A stretch of DNA of 64,000 nucleotides, taken from positions 1,152,001 to 1,216,000 of the forward strand of contig CAWIAD010000001.1 in assembly GCA_963833985.1 (NCBI GenBank). Reading direction: 5' to 3'. Positions 48,504 through 64,000 of the stretch are shown in pieces; positions within the stretch are counted from its first letter, which is position 1; each line of letters starts with the position of its first letter. The notes beneath the pieces were generated by a model that was given only the letters and a program-made list of their open reading frames with translations, did not search any database and was not told the DNA's origin. Origin of the DNA: an uncultured Planctomycetaceae bacterium (GTDB lineage: Bacteria; Planctomycetota; Planctomycetia; Isosphaerales; Isosphaeraceae). The translations under genes and the position numbers were made by a program.

Positions 48504-48774
48504 CGGCAATCCCACCCGTTCGTCGCACCCGGTGCGCGCCCGGCGCCGCAGAGCGCAAGGCTCGATCGTCTGTCATTCTAAAGGACATTCTCGGCCGGCA
48601 AGTGCCCTTTTCCCGACCCAGTGCTTGCAATCGTGATGAACAGGAGTCACGTTGGACATCGTCTGACCCGCCGCGCTGCTTAGAATGTCCGGCGGGCACT
48701 ACCGGCGTGCTGCACGGGATCGACGATCGAGGAAGCTTCGCCTCGGAAAACCGAGGCCAGACAGCGAGGGTGCC

Positions 48775-49833
48775 ATGCGTGGCGACACGCCGATCGCGCG
48801 TCAGTGGAAGCTGCTCAGGATGCTTGGCTGTCGGCGTCTCGGCTTGACCATACAAGAGATGAGCACAGAAACGGGAGTCGGGATCAAGACCATCCGGCGC
48901 GATCTGGACTTTTTCCGCGGCCTTGGCTTCCCCTTGACGGAGCACGTGTGCGAACGGGGCCTCAAGCGGTGGCGACTGGCGGGTGCGCACGTGGAACCGC
49001 CCCTGGCATTCAGGCTCGACGAGGCGATTGCCCTCTACCTGGGCCGGCACCTCATGGACCCGCTGGCAGGAACGCCTTTGTGGGACGCCGCGCAGAGTTC
49101 CTTCCGCAAGATCAAGGCGACGCTCGGCGAAAAGGCCCTCGAGTACATCGAGTCCTTTCGCGGCTTTTACCACCAGACGTCCGTCGGCACCAGCTCCTAC
49201 GCCGCCAAGGCCGAGGTGATCGACGCGATCATGGTCGCACTGGAGGACCGGAAGGCAGTACACATTGCCTACCAGTCCCTCAGGGCCACGGAGCCGGCGA
49301 CCCGAGACATCTATCCCTATGGTTTCATCTACCACCGCGGTAGCCTCTACCTGGCGGCCTTCGCACCCGAGCACGACCGGGTCAAGACCTACAAGGTCGA
49401 TCGCGTCGAGAGCGTCGAGGTCAGCAACCGGCGCTTCGAGCGACCCGCGGACTTCGACCTCGACCGGTTTCTCTCAGGCTCGTTCGGGGTCTTCGAGGGC
49501 GAGGGCGATCTCCTGACGGTGTGCGTCCGCTTTGCGCCGTGCGTGTCGCGGTACGTCAGGGAAGCGCACTGGCACTCCAGCCAGGAGCTCACCCCTCAAA
49601 CCGATGGCAGCCTGCTCGCCCGGTTCCACCTCAACAGCCTCGAGGAATTCAGGGCCTGGATCCTCGGCTTCGGCTCGAACGCTCTCGTGTTGCAGCCGAC
49701 CTCCCTGCGCACCGAGATAGCGGCGGAGGTCGGGCTCATGCTCCGTATGTACGGGCAGGAAGTTGGTGCTGGAGATGACATGAAAGCGTTCGATGATGGG
49801 AATCAGGTCAGGTCTGTGCCAGCGGACAAATGA
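48775..49833 (+). CDS. WYL-domain transcriptional regulator (HTH-WYL-WCX)
   Basis: KTIRRDLDFF HTH; SLYLAAF...KTYKVDRV; AWILGFG; directly upstream of cas genes. Confidence 0.92.
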   Translation: MRGDTPIARQWKLLRMLGCRRLGLTIQEMSTETGVGIKTIRRDLDFFRGLGFPLTEHVCERGLKRWRLAGAHVEPPLAFRLDEAIALYLGRHLMDPLAGTPLWDAAQSSFRKIKATLGEKALEYIESFRGFYHQTSVGTSSYAAKAEVIDAIMVALEDRKAVHIAYQSLRATEPATRDIYPYGFIYHRGSLYLAAFAPEHDRVKTYKVDRVESVEVSNRRFERPADFDLDRFLSGSFGVFEGEGDLLTVCVRFAPCVSRYVREAHWHSSQELTPQTDGSLLARFHLNSLEEFRAWILGFGSNALVLQPTSLRTEIAAEVGLMLRMYGQEVGAGDDMKAFDDGNQVRSVPADK

Positions 49834-49897: not shown

Positions 49898-50524
49898 ATG
49901 CCAGTCGTTGACCTTGCCTTCGAGCTTGCAGGCAACTCGCTGCCCGTGGACCACGGTTATGAGCTTTTCTCCGCCATTTGCCGCGTCGTCCCGCGTCTGC
50001 ACGGCGACCGGCACATCGGCGTGCATGCCATTCGTGGTCAGGCGGCGAGCGCGGGAACAATCTTGCTCGGAGGCCGCTCGCGCTTGCGGGTGCGCTTGCC
50101 CTCGGAGGAGATCGCGGCTTACCTGGCGCTGGCCGGTTCGGCTCTCGACGTGAACGGCCATCGGCTCCGCGTCGGCATCCCGCACGTCGAGTCACTGATC
50201 CCTACCGCGAACCTGTCCGCACGCATCGTGACCTTCAAGGCCATGGTCGAGCCCGACCCGTTCCTGGCCTGTGTGCGCCGCCATCTGACCGCGCTCGGCG
50301 TTTCCGGCGACCCTCAGCTCGTCCCCTCGACGCGGGAACCCTGGACCGGCCGCCCTTTCCGCCGCGTCCTCCGCGTCAAGGGCCGAGCCATCGTCGGCTA
50401 TGCCCTGCGAGTCCTCGCCTTGACGGCGGAGGAGTCGGTCCTGATCCAGGAGCGCGGTCTCGGGGGGCGAAGGCGATTTGGATGCGGCGTCTTCCTGCCA
50501 TTGAAGGAGGTGAACCCTCGATGA
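49898..50524 (+). CDS. cas6: type I MYXAN-like Cas6 (copy a)
   Basis: VDLAFEL...PVDHGYELFSAI; G-loop GLGGRRRFGCGVF. Confidence 0.92.
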   Translation: MPVVDLAFELAGNSLPVDHGYELFSAICRVVPRLHGDRHIGVHAIRGQAASAGTILLGGRSRLRVRLPSEEIAAYLALAGSALDVNGHRLRVGIPHVESLIPTANLSARIVTFKAMVEPDPFLACVRRHLTALGVSGDPQLVPSTREPWTGRPFRRVLRVKGRAIVGYALRVLALTAEESVLIQERGLGGRRRFGCGVFLPLKEVNPR

Positions 50525-52920
50525 ACACAGACATTTTGTGGGCCAAGAGCAAGCAGCACGAGGAGCAATACCACCCGTCCATGTCGCTCTCCGGTCACCT
50601 GTCGGATGTCCTTGAGGCGGCGATCCGGATCATAGACTCCACCGGTGACGAGCAGCTTCGGGCACTTGGTCTGGACCCGGAGCGGTACGGAGATCGACTG
50701 AGGCGATGCGTGCGGTTGGCCGCGGCCCTCCACGATATCGGCAAGGCAAACGACCATTTTCAGGGAATGATTCGCGGCAAGCGCGATGTGCGTCAGAACC
50801 CGCAGGGCGTACGGCACGAATGGGTGTCGGTTCTGATGCTACGGACACTCAGGGACTGGCTTCTACCGGTATTCGATAAGGCCGAATGCGACTTCGACAT
50901 CGTGGAATGGGCCGTATCCGCACACCACCCAGCTCGCGATCACCAAAGCCCTCCCCCCTCGTGTCCGCCAGGGGCGGGTCCGGAGATAACGCTCCTCACA
51001 GGTCATGACGAGATCCAAGGAATTCTCGACTGGGTTCAAGAAACATTCGAGATTGCCGCCCTCCAACCGAAGCACGGCTCCGAGAAGCGACCACTCGTTG
51101 GCCCGGAAAACGCGTTCACGGAGCTTGCGATTTGGGCGAAGTCGGCTCGCCGCACCTGGAATCGAATGCGTGGCGATAAAGAGGCCTCGCGGTTCGTCGC
51201 CGCGGTCAAGGCCTGTCTGATCGCCGCCGACGTGGCGGGCTCGGTGCTGCCGAGGTCCGGGGTGGACGGATCGACGGATTGGAATTGGATTGCAAGGGCC
51301 TTATCGAACCTGCCGAAATCGGGCGACGTCCAGAAGATCGCCGATCATCGCCTGGACGGCAAACCACCCCGCGAATTCCAGCAAGCGGTCGGGGCTTCTC
51401 ACTGGCCGGTCACTTACGTCAAGGCGGGTTGCGGGACCGGCAAGACCGTGGCCGCATACCTCTGGGCCGCTGTCAACCACCCGACACGCCGGCTCTTCTT
51501 CTGCTATCCCACGACGGGCACGGCCACGGAGGGGTTCAAGGATTACCTGTTCGAGCCGGACGGAGAGCTGGGAGATCTCGGCGCCAGGCTGTTCCACAGC
51601 CGGCGGGACGTGGACTTCGACATCATCCTCGGCACGGGTGCAGACTCGCCGCATGCCGAGGCTGACTCGGCCGCGCGGCTGGAAGCGCTGGAAGCCTGGT
51701 CCACACCCATCGTCGCCTGTACGGTCGATACTGTCCTTGGGCTGGTTCAGAATAACAGGCGCGGTCTCTTTGCCTGGCCCGCTCTCGCCCAGTCGGCCTT
51801 CGTCTTCGACGAGATCCACGCCTACGACGACCGGCTCTTCGGAGCACTGCTCCGGTTCCTTCGAGACCTCCACGGGCTCCCTTGCCTGTTAATGACTGCC
51901 AGCTTGCCGAAGCCGCGCGAGGAGGCGCTCTTTCGGACGATCCGGGATGTCCACGACCTGGACCTGCGGCCGATCGAGGGCCCGCGGGAGCTCCAATTAC
52001 TGCCGCGCTACCATAGGCTGAACGCACCCGGCAATGACCCGCTTCCCCTCGTACAGGCCGAGCTCAGGGCCGGCGGCAAGGTGCTCTGGGTCTGCAACAC
52101 GGTGAGCCGTGTGATGGATGCGGCCGACCGCGCCAGCCAGCTCAATCCGCTCATTTACCATAGCCGGTTTCGCTACGTGGATCGTGTTGAGCGGCACAAG
52201 CGAGTTGTCGAGGCCTTCACTCCCGAACACCATGGCCCCGCGCTCGCGATTTGCAGCCAGGTCGCCGAGATGAGCCTGGATCTGAAGGGTTGCACGCTGC
52301 TCGTCACCGACCTGGCGCCGGTTCCGTCCCTGATCCAGCGGTTGGGAAGGCTGAACCGCCAGGCCGCGCCTGGCAACCCGACCAGGCCATTCGTCGTGGT
52401 GGAGCAAGACGAGAGCTCGCGCGACAGGCACCTTCCTTATGCCGCAGGCGACCTGGACGCGGCCCGGACCTGGCTGGAACGTCTGCCGGAATCGGAGATC
52501 AGCCAGCAGCATCTTGCCGATCACTGGGAGCAACTGGCCGAGAAACCGCCAGAACTCGTGCCGAGCGCCTGGCTCGATGGCGGCCCGTCGACAATTGTCA
52601 CGGATCTGCGCGAACCGTCGCAGGGGATCACGGTGATTCTGGATACCGCGGAGTACCCGGATCACCGTGCGCTCCTGCGTTACGATAACCGGATCCGCGA
52701 GTTGCGTCGCAGGGCGCGCGCCGACCAGCGCAGCCTGAGCCGAGAAGAACGGAAGCCACTCCCGGGGGAGCAGGATCGCCTGGCAGCCGTGACGCTGCCA
52801 ATGCCTCCACCTCACGCTCACATCAGGTGGCGCGAGTGGACGCGCTACAAGAGCATACCGGTCGCGCCAGCCGAAGCCATCCACTATGACCTCGAACGAG
52901 GTGCCCGATGGAACGCCTGA
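50521..52920 (+). CDS. cas3: Cas3 HD nuclease-helicase
   Basis: LHDIGKAN, AGCGTGKT, DEIH, MTAS, QVAEMSLDL, QRLGRLNR. Confidence 0.96.
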   Translation: MNTDILWAKSKQHEEQYHPSMSLSGHLSDVLEAAIRIIDSTGDEQLRALGLDPERYGDRLRRCVRLAAALHDIGKANDHFQGMIRGKRDVRQNPQGVRHEWVSVLMLRTLRDWLLPVFDKAECDFDIVEWAVSAHHPARDHQSPPPSCPPGAGPEITLLTGHDEIQGILDWVQETFEIAALQPKHGSEKRPLVGPENAFTELAIWAKSARRTWNRMRGDKEASRFVAAVKACLIAADVAGSVLPRSGVDGSTDWNWIARALSNLPKSGDVQKIADHRLDGKPPREFQQAVGASHWPVTYVKAGCGTGKTVAAYLWAAVNHPTRRLFFCYPTTGTATEGFKDYLFEPDGELGDLGARLFHSRRDVDFDIILGTGADSPHAEADSAARLEALEAWSTPIVACTVDTVLGLVQNNRRGLFAWPALAQSAFVFDEIHAYDDRLFGALLRFLRDLHGLPCLLMTASLPKPREEALFRTIRDVHDLDLRPIEGPRELQLLPRYHRLNAPGNDPLPLVQAELRAGGKVLWVCNTVSRVMDAADRASQLNPLIYHSRFRYVDRVERHKRVVEAFTPEHHGPALAICSQVAEMSLDLKGCTLLVTDLAPVPSLIQRLGRLNRQAAPGNPTRPFVVVEQDESSRDRHLPYAAGDLDAARTWLERLPESEISQQHLADHWEQLAEKPPELVPSAWLDGGPSTIVTDLREPSQGITVILDTAEYPDHRALLRYDNRIRELRRRARADQRSLSREERKPLPGEQDRLAAVTLPMPPPHAHIRWREWTRYKSIPVAPAEAIHYDLERGARWNA

Positions 52921-53014
52921 CGGCATCAATGAATGGGGACTTACCCCGAGATTCGGTTATTTCGCAAGTACCTCATTGCTCAACGCCTTGCGGCGATCCT
53001 GGTACAGATTGCGG
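52906..53014 (-). CRISPR. degenerate mini-array (repeat-spacer-repeat), antisense to cas genes; putative cas-regulating crRNA-like RNA
   Basis: Minus strand CCGCAATCTGTACCAGGATCGCCGCAAGGCGTTGAGCAA + 35-nt spacer (52941-52975) + GTCCCCATTCATTGATGCCGTCAGGCGTTCCATCG; both repeats keep the GCC-N4-GGC hairpin of the main repeat. Confidence 0.8.
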
Positions 53015-53025
53015 TCCTTTCTTAG

Positions 53026-53052
53026 TTGACACCAAGGGGGCTCGAATGTCAA
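53026..53052. promoter_or_regulatory. inverted TTGACA-N15-TGTCAA element between the mini-array and the sigma-like ORF
   Basis: Exact hexamer inverted repeat; no clean -10 at canonical spacing on either strand. Confidence 0.45.
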
Positions 53053-53057
53053 TAGTT

Positions 53058-53095
53058 ATGTGAGGAACCTGAGAAATAAGGAGCCACCCCGGTGA
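53058..53095 (+). promoter_or_regulatory. putative Cascade target (ATG PAM + partial protospacer) over the RBS of ORF 53092
   Basis: ATG|TGAGGAACCTGAGAAATAA vs spacer TGAGGTACTTGCGAAATAA; RBS AAGGAG at 53078-53083. Confidence 0.75.
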
Positions 53096-53337
53096 GAGAC
53101 ATAGACCTCGTTGACGAGATTACCATGTTCCTAAGGTCCACGACAGCCTATCGGATCTGTCGGCCATACGGTGCTGAGCCGCGTGATGCACTTGGCGAAA
53201 TCTACCTCCGCTTGCTCGGCGGCGCCAGTAAGCCGATTCGAAAGCCGACGGCATGGGTGAGGACGAACGCGACTTTTCTTCTCCGGAATTACCTGCGGCG
53301 CGAGAACAGCCGACTCTACCAGCCCTCGGAGATCTAA
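53092..53337 (+). CDS. sigma-70 region 2-like polypeptide
   Basis: DALGEIYLRLL...PTAWVRTNATFLLRNYLRRE resembles ECF sigma2; AAGGAG RBS, GTG start. Confidence 0.6.
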   Translation: MRDIDLVDEITMFLRSTTAYRICRPYGAEPRDALGEIYLRLLGGASKPIRKPTAWVRTNATFLLRNYLRRENSRLYQPSEI

Positions 53338-53338
53338 C

Positions 53339-53617
53339 ATGCCCCTCTTTTCTCTCCAATCGCTTCAATCTCTGGGAACTGACTTTAAGGACGAGGCCAG
53401 GTATGCCCTTGAGTCATTCGAGCTTCGCGATCTTGTGGCTCGGGAGCTCATGCGACTCCCCCAGCGGGAGAGGGAAGCCATAACGGCCCTCGCCGGTCTC
53501 AGCACCGAGTCATGCCGATCTGTTGCTCGAAAACACGGCGTGTCAGCGCAGACGGTTTCCAATTGGGCCAAGGAGGCTCAGCGCAAGTTGCGTCCCAAGC
53601 TGGAGGCTTACGCGTGA
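53339..53617 (+). CDS. sigma-70 region 4-like HTH polypeptide
   Basis: LMRLPQREREAI...SVARKHGVSAQTVSNWAKEAQRKLR; GTGA overlap with cas6b. Confidence 0.75.
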   Translation: MPLFSLQSLQSLGTDFKDEARYALESFELRDLVARELMRLPQREREAITALAGLSTESCRSVARKHGVSAQTVSNWAKEAQRKLRPKLEAYA

Positions 53618-54219
53618 GGTTCGTACTCGATATTTGTTGGCCGCTCTTACCTCCAGGGCGATTCCCCGTTCACTACCAATATTATCTGCTAGCCAGTCTC
53701 TCGCGAATAGTGCCCGAGATTCACTCCACCCCCACCCTGGGTGTCCATCCGATTCGTGGAATGAAGTCCGCCCTCGGGTTTCTGGAAATCGATCGGCGCA
53801 GTGCGGTAACACTCAGAGCACCTGCCGAGGTTCTTCCGACGCTGGTCCCGTTAGGAGGAAAGAAACTCGACATCGGCGGGTGTCAAGTCCGGCTGGGCGT
53901 TCCACGACTCACCGCCCTGGCGCCCGCAGAGCGCCTTCGAGCCGACCTCGTCACTATCAAAGGATACATGTCGATGCCCGAATTCGAGTCGGGGGTAAGG
54001 AGACAGCTGTCCGCGCTTGGGATGAGCGATGAAGTCCGTGCGGAGGTTGGGCGTCGACGGGTCGTCCAGATACGGGGACAGACCATCGTCGGCTTCGGCC
54101 TTCGCCTCTCCGGTCTCTCCGAGGACGAGTCGGTCCGAGTTCAGCAGTACGGACTCGGGGGACGGCGACACTTCGGCTGCGGCCTATTCCAACCTGACTT
54201 GACGGAGATAACGTCGTGA
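53614..54219 (+). CDS. cas6: type I MYXAN-like Cas6 (copy b)
   Basis: PVHYQYYLLASLSR, GVHPIRG, G-loop GLGGRRHFGCGLF; GTGA overlap with cas8. Confidence 0.9.
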   Translation: MRFVLDICWPLLPPGRFPVHYQYYLLASLSRIVPEIHSTPTLGVHPIRGMKSALGFLEIDRRSAVTLRAPAEVLPTLVPLGGKKLDIGGCQVRLGVPRLTALAPAERLRADLVTIKGYMSMPEFESGVRRQLSALGMSDEVRAEVGRRRVVQIRGQTIVGFGLRLSGLSEDESVRVQQYGLGGRRHFGCGLFQPDLTEITS

Positions 54220-55910
54220 AGGGCGCTGAAAAGAAAACGAGGTTACAAGAGGGTCCAAGCCATTTGACCATGCGCCTCTTCGCCCCGGGTATGTCGGTCC
54301 TGCACCGCGCTGGGCTGGGCGGGCTGGCCTGCACGCTGAATGCGGTGGAAGATCGGCATCGAAGCGGGCTGTTGCGCCCCGAGCGATTGCCCGCGCCGTT
54401 CGAGGGCGACAAGCCCCCCTGGGAGATCGACGAGCAGTCGGTGACGCTCCGGTTCGGCAAGCCCGAGAACGCGGGCGAGTACCTGAGGAAGCTTTTCGAG
54501 TTTGCCTTTCAAATTCGCAAGGACGGCCTGATCAGCCTGCCTGGGCAATTCCAAGGGGAGTTATCGGCAGCCGTGCTCGCCGACTTGCAATTGGGGCTCA
54601 CGCTGACGTTCTTGCAGCACGGCCGGGTTCGGGCTCTTGCGAAGGAGGCCACCGTAGCCAGCTATGATACTGACGGAGATGGTGTTCCCGGAGTCGTGGT
54701 CCAGTACAAGAAGTGCTCGGCGTTCAAGCACCAGAAGGGCTGGGAATCGCTGGTTGGCGGCAGTGGCGCCCTGGTATCCGGTTCCATCGCTGTCGATGGG
54801 CCCATCAGTCCCGGCTCGGTCGTGAGGCACGTGGCATACACCGGCGATACGGGTATCGAGGATCCTCCGGAGCGGATGCTTCCTCTGTACTTCGCGCTCG
54901 TCGGCTGCCTGGCCCTGCCCGTGAACCGTGGCGTCGCGGCGCTCATCGTTCCGGATGTCACGGACCTCTCCGAGTTCGTCCTCGATCGTGCGGCGATGAC
55001 CCCGACAACAGCAACGCAGTGCCAGATCGCCGGTGCCGCCGACGCCGCCTTCAGCGCCCAGGTGCGAATCCGCCGCAATCCAAGGAGATCCGCCGAGGTG
55101 GAGTCGAGGGCTCGCCAGGCGCTGTCTGGGTCCGCAATCCCGGCATGCTACGCCATGACCTTCACGCCGACTCCCTGGGCCAGTCAGCAGAAGTCTCGCG
55201 TGGCGACGATCATCGTTCCTCAGGGAGAGAAGCGAACGCTGGACCTCTACGAGCGAGCCGCCACTCACCTGCCCGCAAGGATTGCGACTCGCACGGTCCG
55301 AGAATCGACCGGGCGTGGCAAGCAGCGCACGGTGACCGAGCGCCAGGAGTCGTTCCGAGCCGATAGCATTGTCCGCCCCCTGGTCGCCGAGAACCTGGCA
55401 TTGGGCCGCCCCTGGTATTCCGGGTTCGTGAAACTACTGACCAAGACAAACCCAGCGACCGGCAACCCTTACCGCAACCAACTTCCCTTCGAGCGCGGAG
55501 GATTGAATGCCATGATTTCAGATCCCCAGATGTGGGACGACCGGGGAGAGGAGCTTATCGTCAAGGCCGTCCACGAGGCCATCCGGCAGACCCTTGGCCG
55601 GATCAAGCAGGAGACCGATGGGCCGGGGAACAAGCCGCCCTCACAGGCGACCAAGAACCGCTGGACGAGGTTCCAGGAGAAACTGCGGCTCTCGCTGGCC
55701 GAATCGAAAACCCCAAACGACGCCCGCCATGCCCTGTGCAATCTGTTCAGCCGGGCTGGCCGCGTGCCCGCTCTGGCCGAGTATTGGCAGCTTGTGCTGC
55801 CCAAGCTCGCCGACCGCCGCTGGCAACTGACGCGCGACCTGGCCTTGCTCGCCCTCGCGAGCTATTCCGGCAGATCCAGCGAAAACGGTGACGAACAACC
55901 TCAACAGTGA
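54216..55910 (+). CDS. cas8: Cas8 large subunit (Cas8a1/Cmx1, MYXAN-like)
   Basis: APGMSVLHRAGLGGL, TFLQH, PWASQQKSR, DLALLALASY; position before cas7. Confidence 0.88.
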   Translation: MKGAEKKTRLQEGPSHLTMRLFAPGMSVLHRAGLGGLACTLNAVEDRHRSGLLRPERLPAPFEGDKPPWEIDEQSVTLRFGKPENAGEYLRKLFEFAFQIRKDGLISLPGQFQGELSAAVLADLQLGLTLTFLQHGRVRALAKEATVASYDTDGDGVPGVVVQYKKCSAFKHQKGWESLVGGSGALVSGSIAVDGPISPGSVVRHVAYTGDTGIEDPPERMLPLYFALVGCLALPVNRGVAALIVPDVTDLSEFVLDRAAMTPTTATQCQIAGAADAAFSAQVRIRRNPRRSAEVESRARQALSGSAIPACYAMTFTPTPWASQQKSRVATIIVPQGEKRTLDLYERAATHLPARIATRTVRESTGRGKQRTVTERQESFRADSIVRPLVAENLALGRPWYSGFVKLLTKTNPATGNPYRNQLPFERGGLNAMISDPQMWDDRGEELIVKAVHEAIRQTLGRIKQETDGPGNKPPSQATKNRWTRFQEKLRLSLAESKTPNDARHALCNLFSRAGRVPALAEYWQLVLPKLADRRWQLTRDLALLALASYSGRSSENGDEQPQQ

Positions 55911-55931
55911 ACTTCCTGGAGAAAAAAACCC

Positions 55932-56819
55932 ATGAGCCTGCACGTATTCGCGAACTTCGTGACACCCTTTGGCGCGGCGGCCAATAACCGGGCCGAGACC
56001 GAGGGCAACATCACGACCCTTCAAAAGCTCGTCTGGATGGGGGAGACACACACCACCGTGAGCGCCGAGGCCATCCGCTTTGCTCTTCGAAGGCGACTCG
56101 CTTCCCTTGATGAGCGGGGTTCGAACCGCAAGTGGGACGAGGACGAGAGGAACAACACCTGGCAGGACTGGACATTCAAGGGATGGACCTCGAAGGGCGG
56201 CGAGACATTCATCGACGACGACCTGCTCGGCTTCATGACCGCCGAGGCCGCGAAGGAAGAAGGCGAGTCGGGCACCGCCAACGTCCGCCGGGCGGTGCTG
56301 GAGGTGACGCGGGCCGTATCGCTCACCCCGTGGTCGGGTGACGTCACGTTCAATGCAGCATCGCCGGGCGCCACACCCTCGGCACAGAAGAAAGGGAGCA
56401 ACCCGGTGCCATACGGCACCGAGGTCCACGCGACTCGCTACCAGTACGGCATCGCGCTGACGCCCGAGCGGCTTCGCGACAGCTCCCGGGCGGCGAAGGC
56501 CATCGAGGCGCTCTGCAATCTCGGCACGGTCGCCGGTAATCACGGCCGTTTTCTTTTCGACTTCTCACCCGACGCCGTCGTCTTCCGCATCACCCAGGAT
56601 CCCGCGCCACGCCTGCTGTACTGCTTCGAGACAGCGGATGACGGCAAGAGCATCATCGCCCCGCGCCTGGAGGCCCGCGTCAGCGCTGGCGACATCGACA
56701 GCAGCGAGCTGATCATCGCGGGGGTCAAGGTCCAGGGTGTCGATACGGAAAAGGGCGTGAAGGCCGCCTGCGCCCAGGCCGTCACCAGGATCAACGAGTC
56801 CTTGAAGGCCAAGAGGTAA
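55932..56819 (+). CDS. cas7: Cas7/DevR
   Basis: AANNRAETEGNITTLQK, TVSAEAIRFALR, FIDDDLLGFM, VAGNHGRFLFDFSP. Confidence 0.93.
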   Translation: MSLHVFANFVTPFGAAANNRAETEGNITTLQKLVWMGETHTTVSAEAIRFALRRRLASLDERGSNRKWDEDERNNTWQDWTFKGWTSKGGETFIDDDLLGFMTAEAAKEEGESGTANVRRAVLEVTRAVSLTPWSGDVTFNAASPGATPSAQKKGSNPVPYGTEVHATRYQYGIALTPERLRDSSRAAKAIEALCNLGTVAGNHGRFLFDFSPDAVVFRITQDPAPRLLYCFETADDGKSIIAPRLEARVSAGDIDSSELIIAGVKVQGVDTEKGVKAACAQAVTRINESLKAKR

Positions 56820-56822
56820 TCC

Positions 56823-57458
56823 ATGCTCGGCTTGTACGTTACCGTTCCGATCGCCTGCTTCCGGAAAGGTCTGGCGCGGGAGTATCTCGAGACCGAGCCC
56901 CTGCCACCGCCCGCGACGTGCTACGGCTTCCTGCTCTCGTTGGTCGGTGAAACCGATCGGCGGCGGCACATCGGTGCTCGCGTTTGCCCCGCCCTGCTCA
57001 ACAAGCCGGAGATGAGCGTCGTCATCAGGACCGTCTGGCGCGTCAAGAAGACGCCCCTGGGCTCGTCGGGAAATACCCGGCCTGACTATCAGCAACTTCT
57101 CTCGCCGATCCGTCTGCTCATCTGGCTCGACTCCTCCGAGGAAAAGGGCGAGCAGCCAGGGCTGGAAGACCGCGTATCCGTCGCGCTTGACGAGCCTGGC
57201 CGCATTTCCCGGTTCGGCGGCCTCTCCCTCGGCGAGAGCACGCACCTGGTTGATGAGGTTCGGCGCCCACGCGCCGGCGACGACGAAGACGTTCCAGCGC
57301 GGGCGTATCTCCTGGCCGAACGGGGACGCCTGTCGCTGCCGGTCTGGGTTGACCATGTCGGATCGGCCGGCACCCGCTTCGCGGTCGGGGAGCTTGTCGA
57401 TCAGCACGGAATGAAGCCGCCGGATCGAATCCGGATGCCCATCATTACTCCAACATAG
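56823..57458 (+). CDS. cas5: Cas5/DevS
   Basis: VPIACFRKGLAREYLET...PPPATCYGFLLSLVGE, GGLSLGESTHLVD. Confidence 0.93.
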   Translation: MLGLYVTVPIACFRKGLAREYLETEPLPPPATCYGFLLSLVGETDRRRHIGARVCPALLNKPEMSVVIRTVWRVKKTPLGSSGNTRPDYQQLLSPIRLLIWLDSSEEKGEQPGLEDRVSVALDEPGRISRFGGLSLGESTHLVDEVRRPRAGDDEDVPARAYLLAERGRLSLPVWVDHVGSAGTRFAVGELVDQHGMKPPDRIRMPIITPT

Positions 57459-57491: not shown

Positions 57492-59150
57492 ATGCCAGAA
57501 CAACCGCTCGACGGTCGCGCTACCCGTCTGCGCGTGATGTCCCTGCACGCCCTGGCCTACTGCCAGCGTCTTTTCTACCTGGAGGAGGTCGAGGAGATTC
57601 GCGTCGCCGACGAGCGCGTCTTCGCCGGTCGCGAGCTGCATGCGTCGCTCGAGGCCGGTGAGGACGGGGAGCGAACGCAACTTGAACTCGAAGACCGCGA
57701 CCTGGGACTGGTGGGCAAGGTCGACGCCCTCCGGAAACGGGATGGATCGCTGGTGCCTTATGAGCACAAGCGAGGGAAGTCGTGCAAGCTTGACGGGCAG
57801 GCCCATGCCTGGCCGTCCGACCGGCTCCAGGTCATCGCCTATGCCGTGCTCATCGAGTCCGCCTTCGGTCAGACCATTCCCGAGGGCCGGGTTCGCTACC
57901 ACGCCGACCACGCCACGGTGCGCATTCCCATCGACGCGCAGGCCCGCCAGGACCTGGACGATGCCATCGCGACGGCACGCCGGCTGAGCGAGTCGACCGA
58001 GCGACCCCCTGTCACCGACAACGAGCGGCTCTGTGCGAAGTGCTCGCTGGCGCCGGTGTGCCTGCCCGAGGAGAGCCGGCTCGTCGAGGACAACGGACGT
58101 CAGCCGGTCCGGCTCTTCCCGCCAGATCGCGATGGGACGACGCTTCATGTCGTGACGCCGGGCGCCCGCGTCGGCCGCAGCGCGGAGACACTCACGATCA
58201 CCTTGCCCGACGTCACCCCTCCCTCGCGCCACCCGATCCGCGGCATCGACTCCGTGCTCCTCCATGGTCATGTCCAGGCGACGACCCAGGCACTGAGCCT
58301 CTGTGTCGATCACGACATTCCCGTTCACTGGTTGACGACAACCGGCCGCCATGTCGCGAGCCTGACCGCCTCGGCCGGCCAGGTCCAGCGCCGGGTGCGG
58401 CAGTATCGCGCCCTTGCGGATGAGGCGGCCTGCCTGCGGCTCGCCCGCGCCCTGGTGCGTGCCAAGATCGAGGGCCAGCACCGCTACCTCCTCCGCGCCT
58501 CGCGTGGCGACGACTCCCAGCGCGACGCCATGGAGGCCGATCTCGTCCTGCTTCGCTCGGCCCTCTTGAGCCTGGACCAGGCAGCGGATCGCGACTCTCT
58601 TCGAGGTCACGAGGGCTCCGCCGCCGTGGGATACTTCGGCGGGCTCGGCCGGCTTCTGGTCGCCTCGGTACCCGACTCGCTGCGGTATTCCACCCGCAGC
58701 CGGCGGCCTCCCCTGGACCGCTTCAATGCCCTGCTCAGCTTCGGCTACGGCCTGCTGCACACGGCCGTCATGCGGGCCATCCTGGCAAGCGGCCTGGAGC
58801 CCTCGCTGGGCTTTTTCCACACCCCGCGCAGCGCCGCGTATCCGCTGGTGCTCGACCTCATGGAACTGTTCCGGGTCATCCTCTGGGACATGGTGGTCAT
58901 CGGCTCCCTGAACCGCGGCCAGTGGGATCCGGACGCCGACTTCCTCGTCACCAAGGCGAAGGTCTGGCTTTCCGAGGACGGCCGCAAGAAGGCGATCAAC
59001 CTGTTCGAGTCGCGCCTTGACGAGACCTGGAAGCACCCGGTCCTCGGTTACTCGCTCTCCTACGCACGGACCCTGGAACTGGAGGCCCGGCTCCTGGAGA
59101 AGGAGTGGAGCGGCGAGTCCGGACTCTTCGCACGCCTGCGGATTCGCTGA
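57492..59150 (+). CDS. cas1: Cas4-Cas1 fusion
   Basis: YCQRLFY, GKVD, EHKRG, CAKCSLAPVCLP (Cas4); LRGHEG, RRPPLDRFNALLSFGY, LDLMELFR (Cas1). Confidence 0.95.
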   Translation: MPEQPLDGRATRLRVMSLHALAYCQRLFYLEEVEEIRVADERVFAGRELHASLEAGEDGERTQLELEDRDLGLVGKVDALRKRDGSLVPYEHKRGKSCKLDGQAHAWPSDRLQVIAYAVLIESAFGQTIPEGRVRYHADHATVRIPIDAQARQDLDDAIATARRLSESTERPPVTDNERLCAKCSLAPVCLPEESRLVEDNGRQPVRLFPPDRDGTTLHVVTPGARVGRSAETLTITLPDVTPPSRHPIRGIDSVLLHGHVQATTQALSLCVDHDIPVHWLTTTGRHVASLTASAGQVQRRVRQYRALADEAACLRLARALVRAKIEGQHRYLLRASRGDDSQRDAMEADLVLLRSALLSLDQAADRDSLRGHEGSAAVGYFGGLGRLLVASVPDSLRYSTRSRRPPLDRFNALLSFGYGLLHTAVMRAILASGLEPSLGFFHTPRSAAYPLVLDLMELFRVILWDMVVIGSLNRGQWDPDADFLVTKAKVWLSEDGRKKAINLFESRLDETWKHPVLGYSLSYARTLELEARLLEKEWSGESGLFARLRIR

Positions 59151-59184
59151 CGAGAATGACCGCCAGATCAGCAAGGAACGACCC

Positions 59185-59484
59185 TTGAACGACGCACGGT
59201 GGTGGCTGGTTTGCTATGATGTTCGCGACCCGGTTCGATTACGCCGCACCGCCCGGATTTTGGAGGGCGCGGGGGAGCGGATTCAGTACTCCGTCTTCCG
59301 CTGCTGGCTGAGCCCCACCCAGATGAACGAGCTGCGCTGGAACCTGACCGAGGTCCTGGAGCCCGAGGACGATGTATTGCTGATACCGCTCTGCCCGCGC
59401 TGTGTCCGGGGCATGGCCACGACCCACACCGCGACCAAGGTTCCGGACTGGCCCGCGGGTCCGGAATCCCACTCGATCGTCTAA
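59185..59484 (+). CDS. cas2: Cas2
   Basis: WLVCYDVRDPVRLRR...ERIQYSVFRC; in-frame TTG start after AAGGA. Confidence 0.93.
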   Translation: MNDARWWLVCYDVRDPVRLRRTARILEGAGERIQYSVFRCWLSPTQMNELRWNLTEVLEPEDDVLLIPLCPRCVRGMATTHTATKVPDWPAGPESHSIV

Positions 59485-59749
59485 CTTCGATTTCGCGGAT
59501 TCAAGCATCTGGTTCCGTGCCCCGGCTGACGCGGCAATCCTCGCCTGAAGTATCCAGCACAAAAGGGTTTACGTCTCTTTGGCAATTCGGAAGATCCATG
59601 ACTTTCCCGAAAGTCTTGCAGTACAAGCATTTGGGGAGGCTCTTCGGGAAGAAGCTTGAACGAGGGGAGCCCCACGATCATGTATCTCGCTGATGCGCTT
59701 GATCGACTGAGTCGCAAGTCGTTATCATGGTACAGGATATGATGGGGGA
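59485..59749 (+). promoter_or_regulatory. CRISPR leader
   Basis: Lower-GC non-coding segment between cas2 and the first repeat. Confidence 0.75.
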
Positions 59750-62700
59750 CCGCCCTCGACCATGACGCCGAAAGGCGTTGAGCACTCATGGCCTCATCGG
59801 CGTCGATCTCCGAAAAGCCCCGCCCTCGACCATGACGCCGAAAGGCGTTGAGCACAAGGCCGGCGGCTGGGACCACAGCCGAAATCACCCCCGCCCTCGA
59901 CCATGACGCCGAAAGGCGTTGAGCACGAATACCCGACGAGATCATCGTGCTGGTGCCCTATCCGCCCTCGACCATGACGCCGAACGGCGTTGAGCACATG
60001 GCAATAGCTTCTGGTCGCGCCAGGTCGAGATGCCGCCCTCGACCATGACGCCGAAAGGCGTTGAGCACCCCTTTTTCTCGCCGTGCTGAATCGCCGTGGC
60101 GATCCGCCCTCGACCATGACGCCGAAAGGCGTTGAGCACAGAACGGGATGCACCCATAGTCGTGCGGCTCCTGGCCGCCCTCGACCATGACGCCGAAAGG
60201 CGTTGAGCACACCCGGCCGCGGCTGCGGTGCGGTCGAACCCGGATTGACCGCCCTCGACCATGACGCCGAAAGGCGTTGAGCACGAAACCGCCCCTGGGC
60301 CCTTACCACCAAGTAACGCCCGCCCTCGACCATGACGCCGAAAGGCGTTGAGCACATCGAACAGACCGCCGATCACGCCAAGCCGGCCGACCGAGCCCGC
60401 CCTCGACCATGACGCCGAAAGGCGTTGAGCACATCCTAACGACCCGAGCACATATAACACCGCGGACATCCGCCCTCGACCATGACGCCGAAAGGCGTTG
60501 AGCACACCGGCCGGCGGCGATCCGGTCGCGGACGCACGGTGACCGCCCTCGACCATGACGCCGAAAGGCGTTGAGCACGTTGAGGAACATCACCCCGTCG
60601 TCCCGCAGCACTCGCCCGCCCTCGACCATGACGCCGAAAGGCGTTGAGCACACGGCACGCCGAACAACGCCAACCCCATCAATGTGCCCGCCCTCGACCA
60701 TGACGCCGAAAGGCGTTGAGCACCGGCCTCGCCCTGGCGGACGTGGAGATCAGCGCAGCCCGCCCTCGACCATGACGCCGAAAGGCGTTGAGCACAACGT
60801 GAACGTCCCGGTGGTCAACACCGGCGACGCCCCGCCCTCGACCATGACGCCGAAAGGCGTTGAGCACGTGCTATTATTGAGTCAGTGGAGATGAGTCCTG
60901 AACCGCCCTCGACCATGACGCCGAAAGGCGTTGAGCACGAGCTGCGTGCGGATGCGCGTGTGGCGGAGCTGCCGTTCCGCCCTCGACCATGACGCCGAAA
61001 GGCGTTGAGCACGCTACCGCACCCACATTGTGCCGCTGGCCCACGAGGCCGCCCTCGACCATGACGCCGAAAGGCGTTGAGCACTCTACCGTTCGATGAT
61101 TCCCGGCGGCGCGTTCCTGCCCGCCCTCGACCATGACGCCGAAAGGCGTTGAGCACGGTGATCGGCGACGAGATCATCCCCGGCTCGAAGCTCCGCCCTC
61201 GACCATGACGCCGAAAGGCGTTGAGCACGTCTCCTTCGCCACGAAGCGGGGGACAGTGATGCTCCGCCCTCGACCATGACGCCGAAAGGCGTTGAGCACG
61301 TCAACCAGCGCGCGCTTCATACTCTGGAACAGCGACCGCCCTCGACCATGACGCCGAAAGGCGTTGAGCACCAATTGCTGCCCGCCGCCGATCAGAGGCC
61401 GGTCCTCCGCCCTCGACCATGACGCCGAAAGGCGTTGAGCACCGGCCTCGATGGTCGGATGAGTCCCCAGGCTCGCCCGCCCTCGACCATGACGCCGAAA
61501 GGCGTTGAGCACGCCCCGTCCGGCCTGCACTGGGGTGCAAGCCAGCATCGCCCGCCCTCGACCATGACGCCGAAAGGCGTTGAGCACGCTCGCCGTTGCG
61601 CGGGCGATGGCAATCACAGGCGCCGCCCTCGACCATGACGCCGAAAGGCGTTGAGCACACGCTGGCCCGTCTTGGCCTCGGCCTGGTCGAGATCCCGCCC
61701 TCGACCATGACGCCGAAAGGCGTTGAGCACCCGAGATCGCCGGCATTGAGGTAGACGCCCGCAACCGCCCTCGACCATGACGCCGAAAGGCGTTGAGCAC
61801 CACCTACCTCACTTTCTCGTCAATCTGATAGGGTCCGCCCTCGACCATGACGCCGAAAGGCGTTGAGCACAGATCGAATCCAAGAGAGTCTCCTGGCTCT
61901 GGCAACCGCCCTCGACCATGACGCCGAAAGGCGTTGAGCACTACGGCAGTTCGTCCCATGTTCCCACTAATACATCCGCCCTCGACCATGACGCCGAAAG
62001 GCGTTGAGCACCACCCGATGTCCTCAAGGTCACTCGAACCCTGGTTCCGCCCTCGACCATGACGCCGAAAGGCGTTGAGCACTCCCCGAGATGCTCGTGA
62101 GCTTCGGCAATGAGATCCGCCCTCGACCATGACGCCGAAAGGCGTTGAGCACCCAGTGATTTTGATGGCGTGCGGCATCAGGTGAACAGCCCGCCCTCGA
62201 CCATGACGCCGAAAGGCGTTGAGCACCCCCCAGGCCGTGCAAGCTCCCGGGGACGTGGGCGCCGCCCTCGACCATGACGCCGAAAGGCGTTGAGCACTAC
62301 CTACACGCGGGGCGGCACCGGGATCACCTTGACCGCCCTCGACCATGACGCCGAAAGGCGTTGAGCACGGGTTGGTGGCGGTGACCGAGAGCGTGGTCGA
62401 GGTCCGCCCTCGACCATGACGCCGAAAGGCGTTGAGCACACCCGCAAGGGCCGGAACGTCGCGGCCTACCCGCCCGCCCTCGACCATGACGCCGAAAGGC
62501 GTTGAGCACTCGCCGGCAGTGTGCTGGATCCGCTGGATGCCGTTCCCGCCCTCGACCATGACGCCGAAAGGCGTTGAGCACAACTGCGGATCTTCATGCC
62601 CCGCGTGAGCCCGAAAGCCGCCCTCGACCATGACGCCGAAAGGCGTTGAGCACCAGAACCCCGACGCGCGGGTTGATGGCGAGCTGGGGCCGCCCTCGAC

Positions 62701-64000
62701 CATGACGCCGAAAGGCGTTGAGCACTATCGGCGGCCAAGGGCCAGGGCGGCAACGCCCGTCCGCCCTCGACCATGACGCCGAAAGGCGTTGAGCACAGCC
62801 GCCGGCGGACGGACCGCCGCAGAACGGCAAGCCGCCCTCGACCATGACGCCGAAAGGCGTTGAGCACACGATCCTCGGGCACTCGCCCGACATCGCGGAC
62901 CCGCCCTCGACCATGACGCCGAAAGGCGTTGAGCACATCCGCGTCGGCGACACGATCATCGCCGTGACGGTCCGCCCTCGACCATGACGCCGAAAGGCGT
63001 TGAGCACCTGGGCAGGCTGCCTCTTCGTCCCGTACTCCGGACCGCCCTCGACCATGACGCCGAAAGGCGTTGAGCACCCGAGACGATGGTCCAGGAGTTG
63101 CCAGTCCTTCAGCCGCCCTCGACCATGACGCCGAAAGGCGTTGAGCACCAGGAGCTGTCTCGTCCGACTCCCTCACCCAGATCGCCGCCCTCGACCATGA
63201 CGCCGAAAGGCGTTGAGCACGCGCTGGGCGTGGCGAGGCTCTTGAACGACCCCGGCCGCCCTCGACCATGACGCCGAAAGGCGTTGAGCACAGTTCACCC
63301 CGAGCCCAGACGACCTTGCTGACTACCCCGCCCTCGACCATGACGCCGAAAGGCGTTGAGCACATCGGTAAGGACTTCTGGATCGGCCGGCTGATCTGGT
63401 CCGCCCTCGACCATGACGCCGAAAGGCGTTGAGCACACCGTGCCGCCGCCCGGCCAGGCCGTCGGAGCGCCATCCCGCCCTCGACCATGACGCCGAAAGG
63501 CGTTGAGCACACCAGTTCGTGCAGCTCCCAACGGCCGTCAACCAGGCCGCCCTCGACCATGACGCCGAAAGGCGTTGAGCACACGGTAATAGCTTCTGGT
63601 CGCGCCAGGTCGAAATGTCCGCCCTCGACCATGACGCCGAAAGGCCTTGAGCACACATATTCGGCGCAGCGTGCCAGCGCAGCTTGCGCCCGCCCTCGAC
63701 CATGACGCCGAAAGGCGTTGAGCACCACTTCGACACCAGGCGGGATGCGCTCGCGGATCGCCCGCCCTCGACCATGACGCCGAAAGGCGTTGAGCACAAG
63801 GAGCTGGAGGAGAACCCGCCGGCCCGGCTGCCCCGCCCTCGACCATGACGCCGAAAGGCGTTGAGCACGGCGCTGGACGCCGCGGCGGTCGCCGTCGTCC
63901 TTCTGGCCCGCCCTCGACCATGACGCCGAAAGGCGTTGAGCACCGGTTTATCCGGCTGAAGAAGGCCGGGACAATCGGCCGCCCTCGACCATGACGCCGA
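59750..64000 (+). CRISPR. CRISPR array, 36-nt repeat CCGCCCTCGACCATGACGCCGAAAGGCGTTGAGCAC, about 60 repeats/59 spacers (continues beyond window)
   Basis: Manual count; spacers about 33-41 nt; hairpin CGCC-GAAA-GGCG then 8-nt TTGAGCAC handle; single-base variant repeats start at 59962 and 63619. Confidence 0.99.

Follow-up and report, generated by a model that had tools for sequence, protein, structure and literature searches.

Guides encoded within cas loci which repress the cas genes themselves have been described as CreR (10.1101/2023.03.10.532045) and as the mini-arrays of Shmakov et al. (10.1101/2023.03.03.530964). According to these reports, a degenerate two-repeat array lies between cas genes, its spacer has a partial, PAM-flanked match to a cas promoter (that of cas6 in type I-B), and the predicted outcome is autorepression by Cascade, which is lifted by anti-CRISPRs. 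Cargo genes, regulators among them, may lie behind the targets. In the related CreTA, CrePA and CRISIS systems, as these are presented (10.1101/2024.12.27.630466; PMC12737573), non-cas cargo within the locus comes under guide–Cascade repression, the cargo being a toxin or a defence system. ECF sigma factors, which usually autoregulate (PMC7826278), also have CRISPR connections. The DdvS/DdvA system of Myxococcus xanthus is reported to comprise an autoregulated ECF factor dedicated to CRISPR, whose cas operon reads into the array; by the same account it involves a membrane anti-sigma factor, a need for CarD–CarG, a type III-B target and an unsplit sigma factor, and no guide RNA brake is part of it (PMC6061681). 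Tn916 Sig7–Sig8, SigO–RsoA of B. subtilis and Gp55/Gp33 of T4 carry regions 2 and 4 on two chains, and a private promoter before the sigma genes themselves, positive feedback and possible priming by read-through are described for such split factors, Sig7–Sig8 being a self-activating example primed in this way (10.64898/2026.10.01.756105). MtvS1 and MtvS2 of Francisella are a proposed split sigma factor needed for cas expression; they are portrayed as YgfB-family proteins which act globally, are not of the sigma70 family by sequence and are not described in a cas operon (PMC13627669). Finally, in the published dCas12f–sigmaE system an ECF factor is encoded with a Cas effector and a self-targeting guide, and the nuclease-dead effector activates transcription about 46 bp downstream without promoter elements (PMC12259090).

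The locus described here has something in common with each of these systems, and every component has a precedent; the module as a whole is real and conserved and would be a new form of CreR-type control. It shares all of the listed features of CreR and the Shmakov mini-arrays, but unlike what those reports describe, the first controlled gene here is a predicted sigma factor which would drive the promoter itself. Its cargo, held within the locus as in CreTA, CrePA and CRISIS, is a predicted transcription factor, theirs a toxin or a defence system. The predicted factor, like DdvS, would be CRISPR-dedicated and autoregulated, with a cas operon reading into the array. As in the known split factors, regions 2 and 4 reside on two chains and a private promoter, positive feedback and read-through priming are conceivable, although no CRISPR link is given for the former and region 4 comes first in Tn916 (Sig7; 10.64898/2026.10.01.756105), whereas here there is a collinear fission of one ECF factor of which fused relatives are extant. 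In contrast to dCas12f–sigmaE, the target abuts a ribosome site and cas3 is intact, a geometry which predicts repression. No description of a guide-repressed sigma factor in a cas operon was found in the literature searched. The word 'sigma' occurs nowhere in the main texts of the CreR and Shmakov et al. papers, nor in two small supplements of PMC10120712, whose large tables, like the CreR and CRISIS supplementary tables, may list such loci.

Layout of the locus and the mini-array guide

The window, a 64-kb stretch (64,000 nucleotides) of an uncultured Planctomycetaceae genome, contains a complete type I-B MYXAN system, the markers Cas8a1/Cmx1, DevR, DevS, Cmx6 and MYXAN Cas1 all scoring above cut-off. 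On the plus strand, a gene for a WYL-domain regulator (48685–49833; Pfam WYL/WCX) lies 5′ of cas6a (Cas6/Cmx6, 49898–50524; TIGR02807 above cut-off) and cas3 (HD and helicase, 50521–52920). An insert of 690 bp then separates cas3 from a second cas6, cas6b (53614–54219, GTG start), which is followed by cas8, cas7/DevR and cas5/DevS (54216–57458; NCBIfam above cut-off), a cas4/1 fusion with cas2 (57492–59484) and the main array of 90 repeats of 36 nt (59750–64000, extending beyond the window end). The insert holds two short ORFs. ORF1 (53092–53337; 81 aa, GTG start) has a GGAG site at 53080, and ORF2 (53339–53617; 92 aa, ATG start) has a GGAG of its own at 53328, inside the end of ORF1. The ORF2 stop overlaps the GTG of cas6b (53614) and the cas6b stop that of cas8 (54216), exactly as the first-pass annotation had it; from ORF1 through cas2, neighbouring genes overlap or are separated by no more than about 33 nt. 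That annotation had also recognized no anti-sigma gene nearby, which holds for the adjacent DNA, since the stretch running from the mini-array through the two ORFs to cas6b accommodates no further gene.

The two Cas6 paralogues are about 34% identical (49898–50524 and 53614–54219), and cas6b, present only with the module in the loci compared, may be tuned to degenerate repeats. Upstream of the main array, the leader contains one housekeeping-type promoter match (59699–59728; one found against 0.6 expected). A near-identical pair of spacers placed far apart in this array (59998–60032 and about 63582–63618) suggests repeated acquisition from related invaders. The genome carries a second CRISPR–Cas system (G000:C1:682000-700700; WYL, cas3, cas2, cas4/1 and a different repeat), which we take to be type I-G and in which there is no member of the split-sigma family; 23 of 24 nt are common to its spacer at G000:C1:682936-682959 and the fifth spacer of the main array (60069–60103), suggesting that both systems met the same invader. 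Elsewhere, a gene for an LRR protein (G000:C1:2067133-2068000) appears frame-shifted, a hint of indel errors in the assembly or of a pseudogene.

Between cas3 and ORF1, on the minus strand and thus divergent from the sigma–cas run, lies a mini-array of two repeats. Repeat 1 (52976–52998) consists of a hairpin and 3′ handle and matches the 3′ half of the main repeat; the degenerate repeat 2 (52905–52940), within which cas3 finds its stop codon, retains an identical 17-nt hairpin part in five of five loci. The handle and both hairpins are kept in all five loci, without compensatory changes. Rfam gave no match, and a single viral match to the repeat pattern was dismissed as chance. A weak terminator-like hairpin (52993–53012, plus strand) is present 3′ of cas3, with two such hairpins found against 0.8 expected; it would restrict read-through into the sigma genes.

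The 35-nt pseudo-spacer between the repeats (52941–52975) pairs through its first 19 nt (minus strand, from 52975) with 53061–53079 behind an ATG, mismatched at positions 6, 9 and 12 (16/19 matching). Of these positions, 6 and 12 are ones at which type I complexes tolerate mispairing. Together the PAM and protospacer occupy 53058–53079 on the plus strand, and the 3′ end of the target falls at the ORF1 ribosome site, with the ORF1 start codon 34 nt from the PAM. ATG is reported to be a PAM for type I-B (PMC9881144); an attempt to infer the PAM from self-matching spacers of the main array yielded no full-length match. Besides the spacer itself, 53061–53079 is the sole site in the 10.2-Mb genome with one mismatch or fewer over 16 scored positions, and the three sites with two mismatches all lack an ATG. 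The two ORFs had been proposed as the first target of the guide, and the pairing bears this out.

The same relationship recurs wherever DNA of a family locus is available. In five of five loci there is a partial, seed-side match of 14–19 nt with a PAM (ATG in four, ATA in one), at what is presumed to be a promoter position. Guides differ from their own targets by 1, 3, 1, 0 and 0 mismatches (positions 1–17, with 6 and 12 unscored) and from those of the other loci by 3–10, the close pair L012/L023 excepted (1 and 0); each of the five guides fits its own target best or equal best. Both the incompleteness of the match and the shorter spacers of four loci agree with a CreR-like mode in which the complex binds but does not cut. 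Given the target at the ORF1 ribosome site and gaps of at most about 33 nt from ORF1 to cas2, the guide is placed to repress the sigma and cas genes jointly, and there is strong reason to infer that guide and Cascade repress the sigma–cas run. This predicted control of the whole cas run, familiar from CreR logic, was overlooked in the first-pass annotation, as were fused full-length forms of the two ORFs.

A divergent ECF family, split and fused

On their own the ORFs give marginal signals. In Pfam, ORF1 matches Sigma70_r2 (E 2e-4, 21.4 bits, below the cut-off of 24) and ORF2 Sigma70_r4 (E 3e-4, 20.7 bits, below the cut-off of 24.1), the latter tying with generic HTH families. A word search for longer homologues of ORF1 found none among 108 candidates, albeit by a weak method, full-length members being found by a later search. 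A search with cas8 gave eight loci, in two of which counterparts of both ORFs occupy the equivalent position, and in one of these (L012) both halves are fused in a single gene of 167 aa. With the L012 protein as query against 1.84 billion representatives, 53 matches were obtained, of which 50 were kept after the removal of three HTH-repeat proteins: 10 full-length proteins, 18 N-halves and 22 C-halves.

The family as a whole is more readily placed. TIGR02937 (sigma70-ECF) picks up each of the 11 aligned full-length proteins at E<=0.001, and at least one of them scores above cut-off. A full-length family profile finds AlgU/RpoE in the PDB at E 4e-5, and the profile of the N-half alone recovered no sigma factor there. 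The predicted full-length structure comprises a sigma-4 domain and a sigma-2-like domain; the C-domain superimposes on region 4 of sigmaE (Z 8.9, rmsd 2.0, 68 aligned), and for the ORF1 model (pLDDT 89) sigma-2 domains rank first and lie within the top eight of 48,161 chains, though at modest scores (Z 5.8–6.5). Foldseek with the predicted structure returned nothing at E<=0.001, the matches listed being sigma factors or their complexes, and the language-model neighbours of the family are sigma70-family clusters (0.96–0.98). These profile, language-model and structure matches place the two ORFs in a small, divergent ECF family, ORF1 as its sigma-2 half and ORF2 as its sigma-4 half, and the sigma fold, which had been suggested for both halves from resemblance alone, is supported. 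The layout is also that of an ECF factor, with sigma-2 and sigma-4, no sigma-3 and a length of about 160–190 aa, the halves in the window adding up to 173 aa. Both domains reside on one chain in L012 and L021 and on two in the window, L005 and L023. Compared with what we take to be the ECF consensus, the family alignment shows substitutions at several characteristic residues of regions 2.2 and 4.2. The best conserved segment is the recognition helix motif QTVCNWA. Conserved cysteines (LCRxY, SCR and TVCNW) occur in 53092–53617 and across the family, and might place the sigma factor under redox or metal control.

Three of the five loci with DNA are therefore split and two fused, and in each of the three sequenced splits the adjacent genes carrying regions 2 and 4 both have a predicted ribosome site, that of the second ORF being its own and purine-rich. 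Forty of the 50 family proteins are halves with breaks confined to the linker, the sole exception, inside a domain, being one short C-terminal piece, and so the split probably evolved, although some database halves (P0002, P0043, P0051) may be contig-edge fragments. N-halves finish a few residues past an LRRE motif and C-halves begin within the linker. Third codon positions are 26–35% identical against 42–68% at first and second positions, in both halves. In the family tree, split and fused forms are intermixed, requiring seven changes, at least three of them forced by supported branches, and the closest relatives of the window's protein are likewise split (98/85 support with P0036). A programmed frameshift joining the halves is excluded by their relative frames, which are +1 in the window, +2 in L005 and 0 in L023, where a single in-frame stop separates them. 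The fused state of L012 is uncertain, since three of its cas genes have frameshift-like breaks; L021 is fused as well.

A promoter-like element and the readings it permits

Just 5′ of the PAM, and readable on both strands, four of the five loci have an element of the form T(T/A)GAC(A/G)-N15-(T/C)GTC(T/A)A, in the window the near-palindrome TTGACA-N15-TGTCAA (53026–53052), which is a candidate two-way promoter of the locus sigma factor or else an operator. The guide target sits between this conserved GACA-N15-YGTCWA element and the ribosome site of the sigma–cas run. Inverted half-site pairs at any spacing arise in about 1% of shuffles per locus. All three further family proteins with over-long N-termini, which read through the element, are compatible with it at the 15-nt spacing only, with shuffle rates of 0.8–1.9% and a pattern relaxed after these proteins had been inspected; the same three are also compatible with mini-array repeat 1. 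The geometry of sigmaE promoters is comparable. The layout resembles ECF promoters, and recognition by the locus sigma factor is predicted; for DdvS, the promoters are given as GTAA-n16-CGT (PMC6061681). Beyond the locus, the strict element occurs at three sites in this genome and one in each of two others, against 1–9 at control spacings, and it is absent from the intergenic DNA scanned around the second CRISPR–Cas system, which leaves no sign of a regulon outside the locus.

The explanation we favour is a feedback circuit inserted where cas3 meets cas8, and to its central claim, that a self-activating private sigma factor drives the operon and probably the guide too while Cascade with the guide represses in place of an anti-sigma factor, in the manner of CreR, we give about even chances. 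ORF1 and ORF2 would form a two-subunit ECF-type factor, a single chain in some relatives, which most likely recognizes GACA-N15-YGTCWA and transcribes itself along with cas6b-cas8-7-5-cas4/1-cas2, in positive feedback. It would probably fire the divergent mini-array as well, since the element reads alike on the opposite strand. Sigma activity and two-way firing are proposed with moderate confidence, for a module whose anatomy, conservation, fold and guide–target pairing are observed. Negative feedback would come from the guide once Cas6 has processed it: Cascade would bind over the predicted transcription start and leave the DNA uncut. Transcription is predicted to begin near 53058–53061 on the forward strand and near 53018 on the reverse. 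If Cascade were blocked, or drawn away by other crRNAs, the sigma factor would escape and cas expression be amplified until Cascade is restored; anti-CRISPR attack might then trigger an amplified cas burst, because Cascade and guide would stand in for the anti-sigma factor. Read-through from cas6a-cas3 could prime the loop, and toxicity of an unchecked sigma factor through competition for core is a plausible side effect. The earlier suggestion that Cascade and the mini-guide replace an anti-sigma factor agrees with a target placed to repress the sigma promoter, control presumably being at the level of transcription. Among the four outputs then offered, boosted cas transcription fits best, since the conserved promoter-like element lies only before the sigma–cas run, and activation of backup defence is left unsupported. 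A bolder version can be put forward only tentatively: a single two-way promoter read by the split sigma factor would fire both the cas operon and the guide that silences it, Cascade acting as an RNA-programmed anti-sigma factor, and inactivation by an anti-CRISPR would flip the loop to a flood of Cascade and, should that fail, to shutdown of the cell via polymerase competition, as a graded anti-anti-CRISPR response.

Other readings take the same features differently. The pair may be sigma-derived proteins which bind an operator as a second brake or tuner rather than as initiation factors, with ordinary CreR autorepression acting on a housekeeping promoter, a reading we consider unlikely but worth weighing. 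A housekeeping promoter is possible on the grounds that the left half-site is identical to the -35 consensus and, in L012, TATACT follows 19 nt further on, although a housekeeping promoter scan of the window found none at the element. The element is an inverted repeat, and in L021 its half-sites are 5 nt apart instead of 15, a difference of one helical turn that is easier to square with an operator than with a promoter; ORF2, moreover, scores equally for transposase-like HTH families and sigma-4, and conservation across the family is highest in its recognition helix. Yet a repressor would have no need of the sigma-2 half, which is kept and conserved in five loci, and 11 of 11 full-length members resemble whole ECF factors. 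A little less probable again is a toxin of the CreTA/CrePA/CRISIS type, in which the chief task of the sigma halves would be to soak up core RNA polymerase, halting or killing the cell once Cascade fails, by way of addiction or abortive infection, an outcome compatible with the favoured feedback circuit. Conservation of a DNA-recognition helix is needless for pure titration, the host has 110 sigma-2 matches as competitors, and the module is patchy, being absent from the sister locus L058; neither ORF has a PADLOC match at E<=0.1. What speaks for such a toxin is that, in the cases described, the first genes behind the guide target are toxins or defence genes, and that overproduced Sig7–8 and SigN are reported to kill, probably by core competition (10.64898/2026.10.01.756105).

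Recruitment of the sigma factor by Cascade for RNA-guided activation, as with dCas12f and sigmaE, was a further possibility raised at first and is now very doubtful for the sigma–cas genes, the target abutting the ribosome site. With the target so placed and the start codon 34 nt from the PAM, a start about 46 bp downstream, the distance described for dCas12f (PMC12259090), would fall inside ORF1; cas3 is intact besides, and a conserved promoter-like element is present. In favour of this reading, some guides in that precedent are directed at DNA upstream of rpoE-dcas12f (PMC12259090), and the translational coupling of the ORFs to cas6b and cas8 hints that the products assemble together. Cascade would also lie 5 nt upstream of the half-site on the minus strand and might from there influence the promoter of the mini-array. 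Just as improbable is the view that a CreR-controlled operon here carries an ECF gene which is in decay or was wrongly assembled. Fused relatives are known, the L023 split is one in-frame stop and there is an apparent frameshift elsewhere in this assembly, against which stand the linker-confined breaks of 40 half-proteins, dedicated ribosome sites and nearest tree relatives which are also split (98/85 with P0036). Least credible is that the released sigma factor induces a backup defence regulon at other sites in the genome: DdvS is described as governing both CBASS and CRISPR in M. xanthus (PMC11506125) and the present genome has a second CRISPR–Cas system, but the strict element is neither enriched in three genomes, which tells against the output claimed at first, nor present in the intergenic DNA scanned near that system.

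Distribution of the module and its meaning

The insert recurs in all five family loci with DNA, as the survey of homologous cas loci proposed at the outset has borne out, always in the order cas3, mini-array, element, target, sigma and cas6b, with cas6b the next gene after sigma in five of five. One of these, L005, comes from a Planctomycetota MAG (G165) of the same family as the window genome. Among four metagenome pattern matches, one (L024) was dropped as chance and two (L021 and L022) proved to be one locus. The module is rare. In 401 genomes of the host's class, with 28 MYXAN cas8 loci, it is present in two loci, with cas3 adjoining cas8 in 24 and a lone cas6 in two. A family member was found in one of 120 same-family genomes; among 40 related genomes there was none, only two weak generic matches to ORF2, and 12 weak matches in 400 genomes of the phylum (E 2e-10 to 9e-9) were taken as generic ECF factors. 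Two genome sets that overlap for the most part, one of 252 and the other of 267, contain the family only in the L012 genome, it is absent from four of five genomes behind the cas8 loci, and phages and plasmids gave no match.

In module-free loci the end of cas3 overlaps the start of cas8, and in module loci repeat 2 is placed after the corresponding point and provides the cas3 stop codon. No mini-arrays were found by simple patterns 5′ of cas6 in the module-free loci examined. The cas6b proteins form a separate branch among Cas6 proteins (87/92 support), and the module-bearing Cas8 proteins fall within one 12-member clade that includes module-free loci, L058 among them; the history is either one gain with losses or repeated insertion. 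In a further MYXAN cas8 operon (L007, 3200–7000) the upstream portion is replaced by several IS elements.

Known CreR circuits are simple negative feedback. If the proposed circuit is true, a self-activating sigma factor would turn relief of repression into a switch or a pulse, providing a new means of ECF control without an anti-sigma factor and a novel anti-anti-CRISPR strategy. The unit spans about 700 bp, and an orthogonal sigma–promoter pair taken from it and gated by Cascade could serve synthetic circuits. Within the family itself a sigma factor has been divided at its linker more than once, with split forms beside fused ones, and so offers a natural test of the tethering of sigma-2 to sigma-4.
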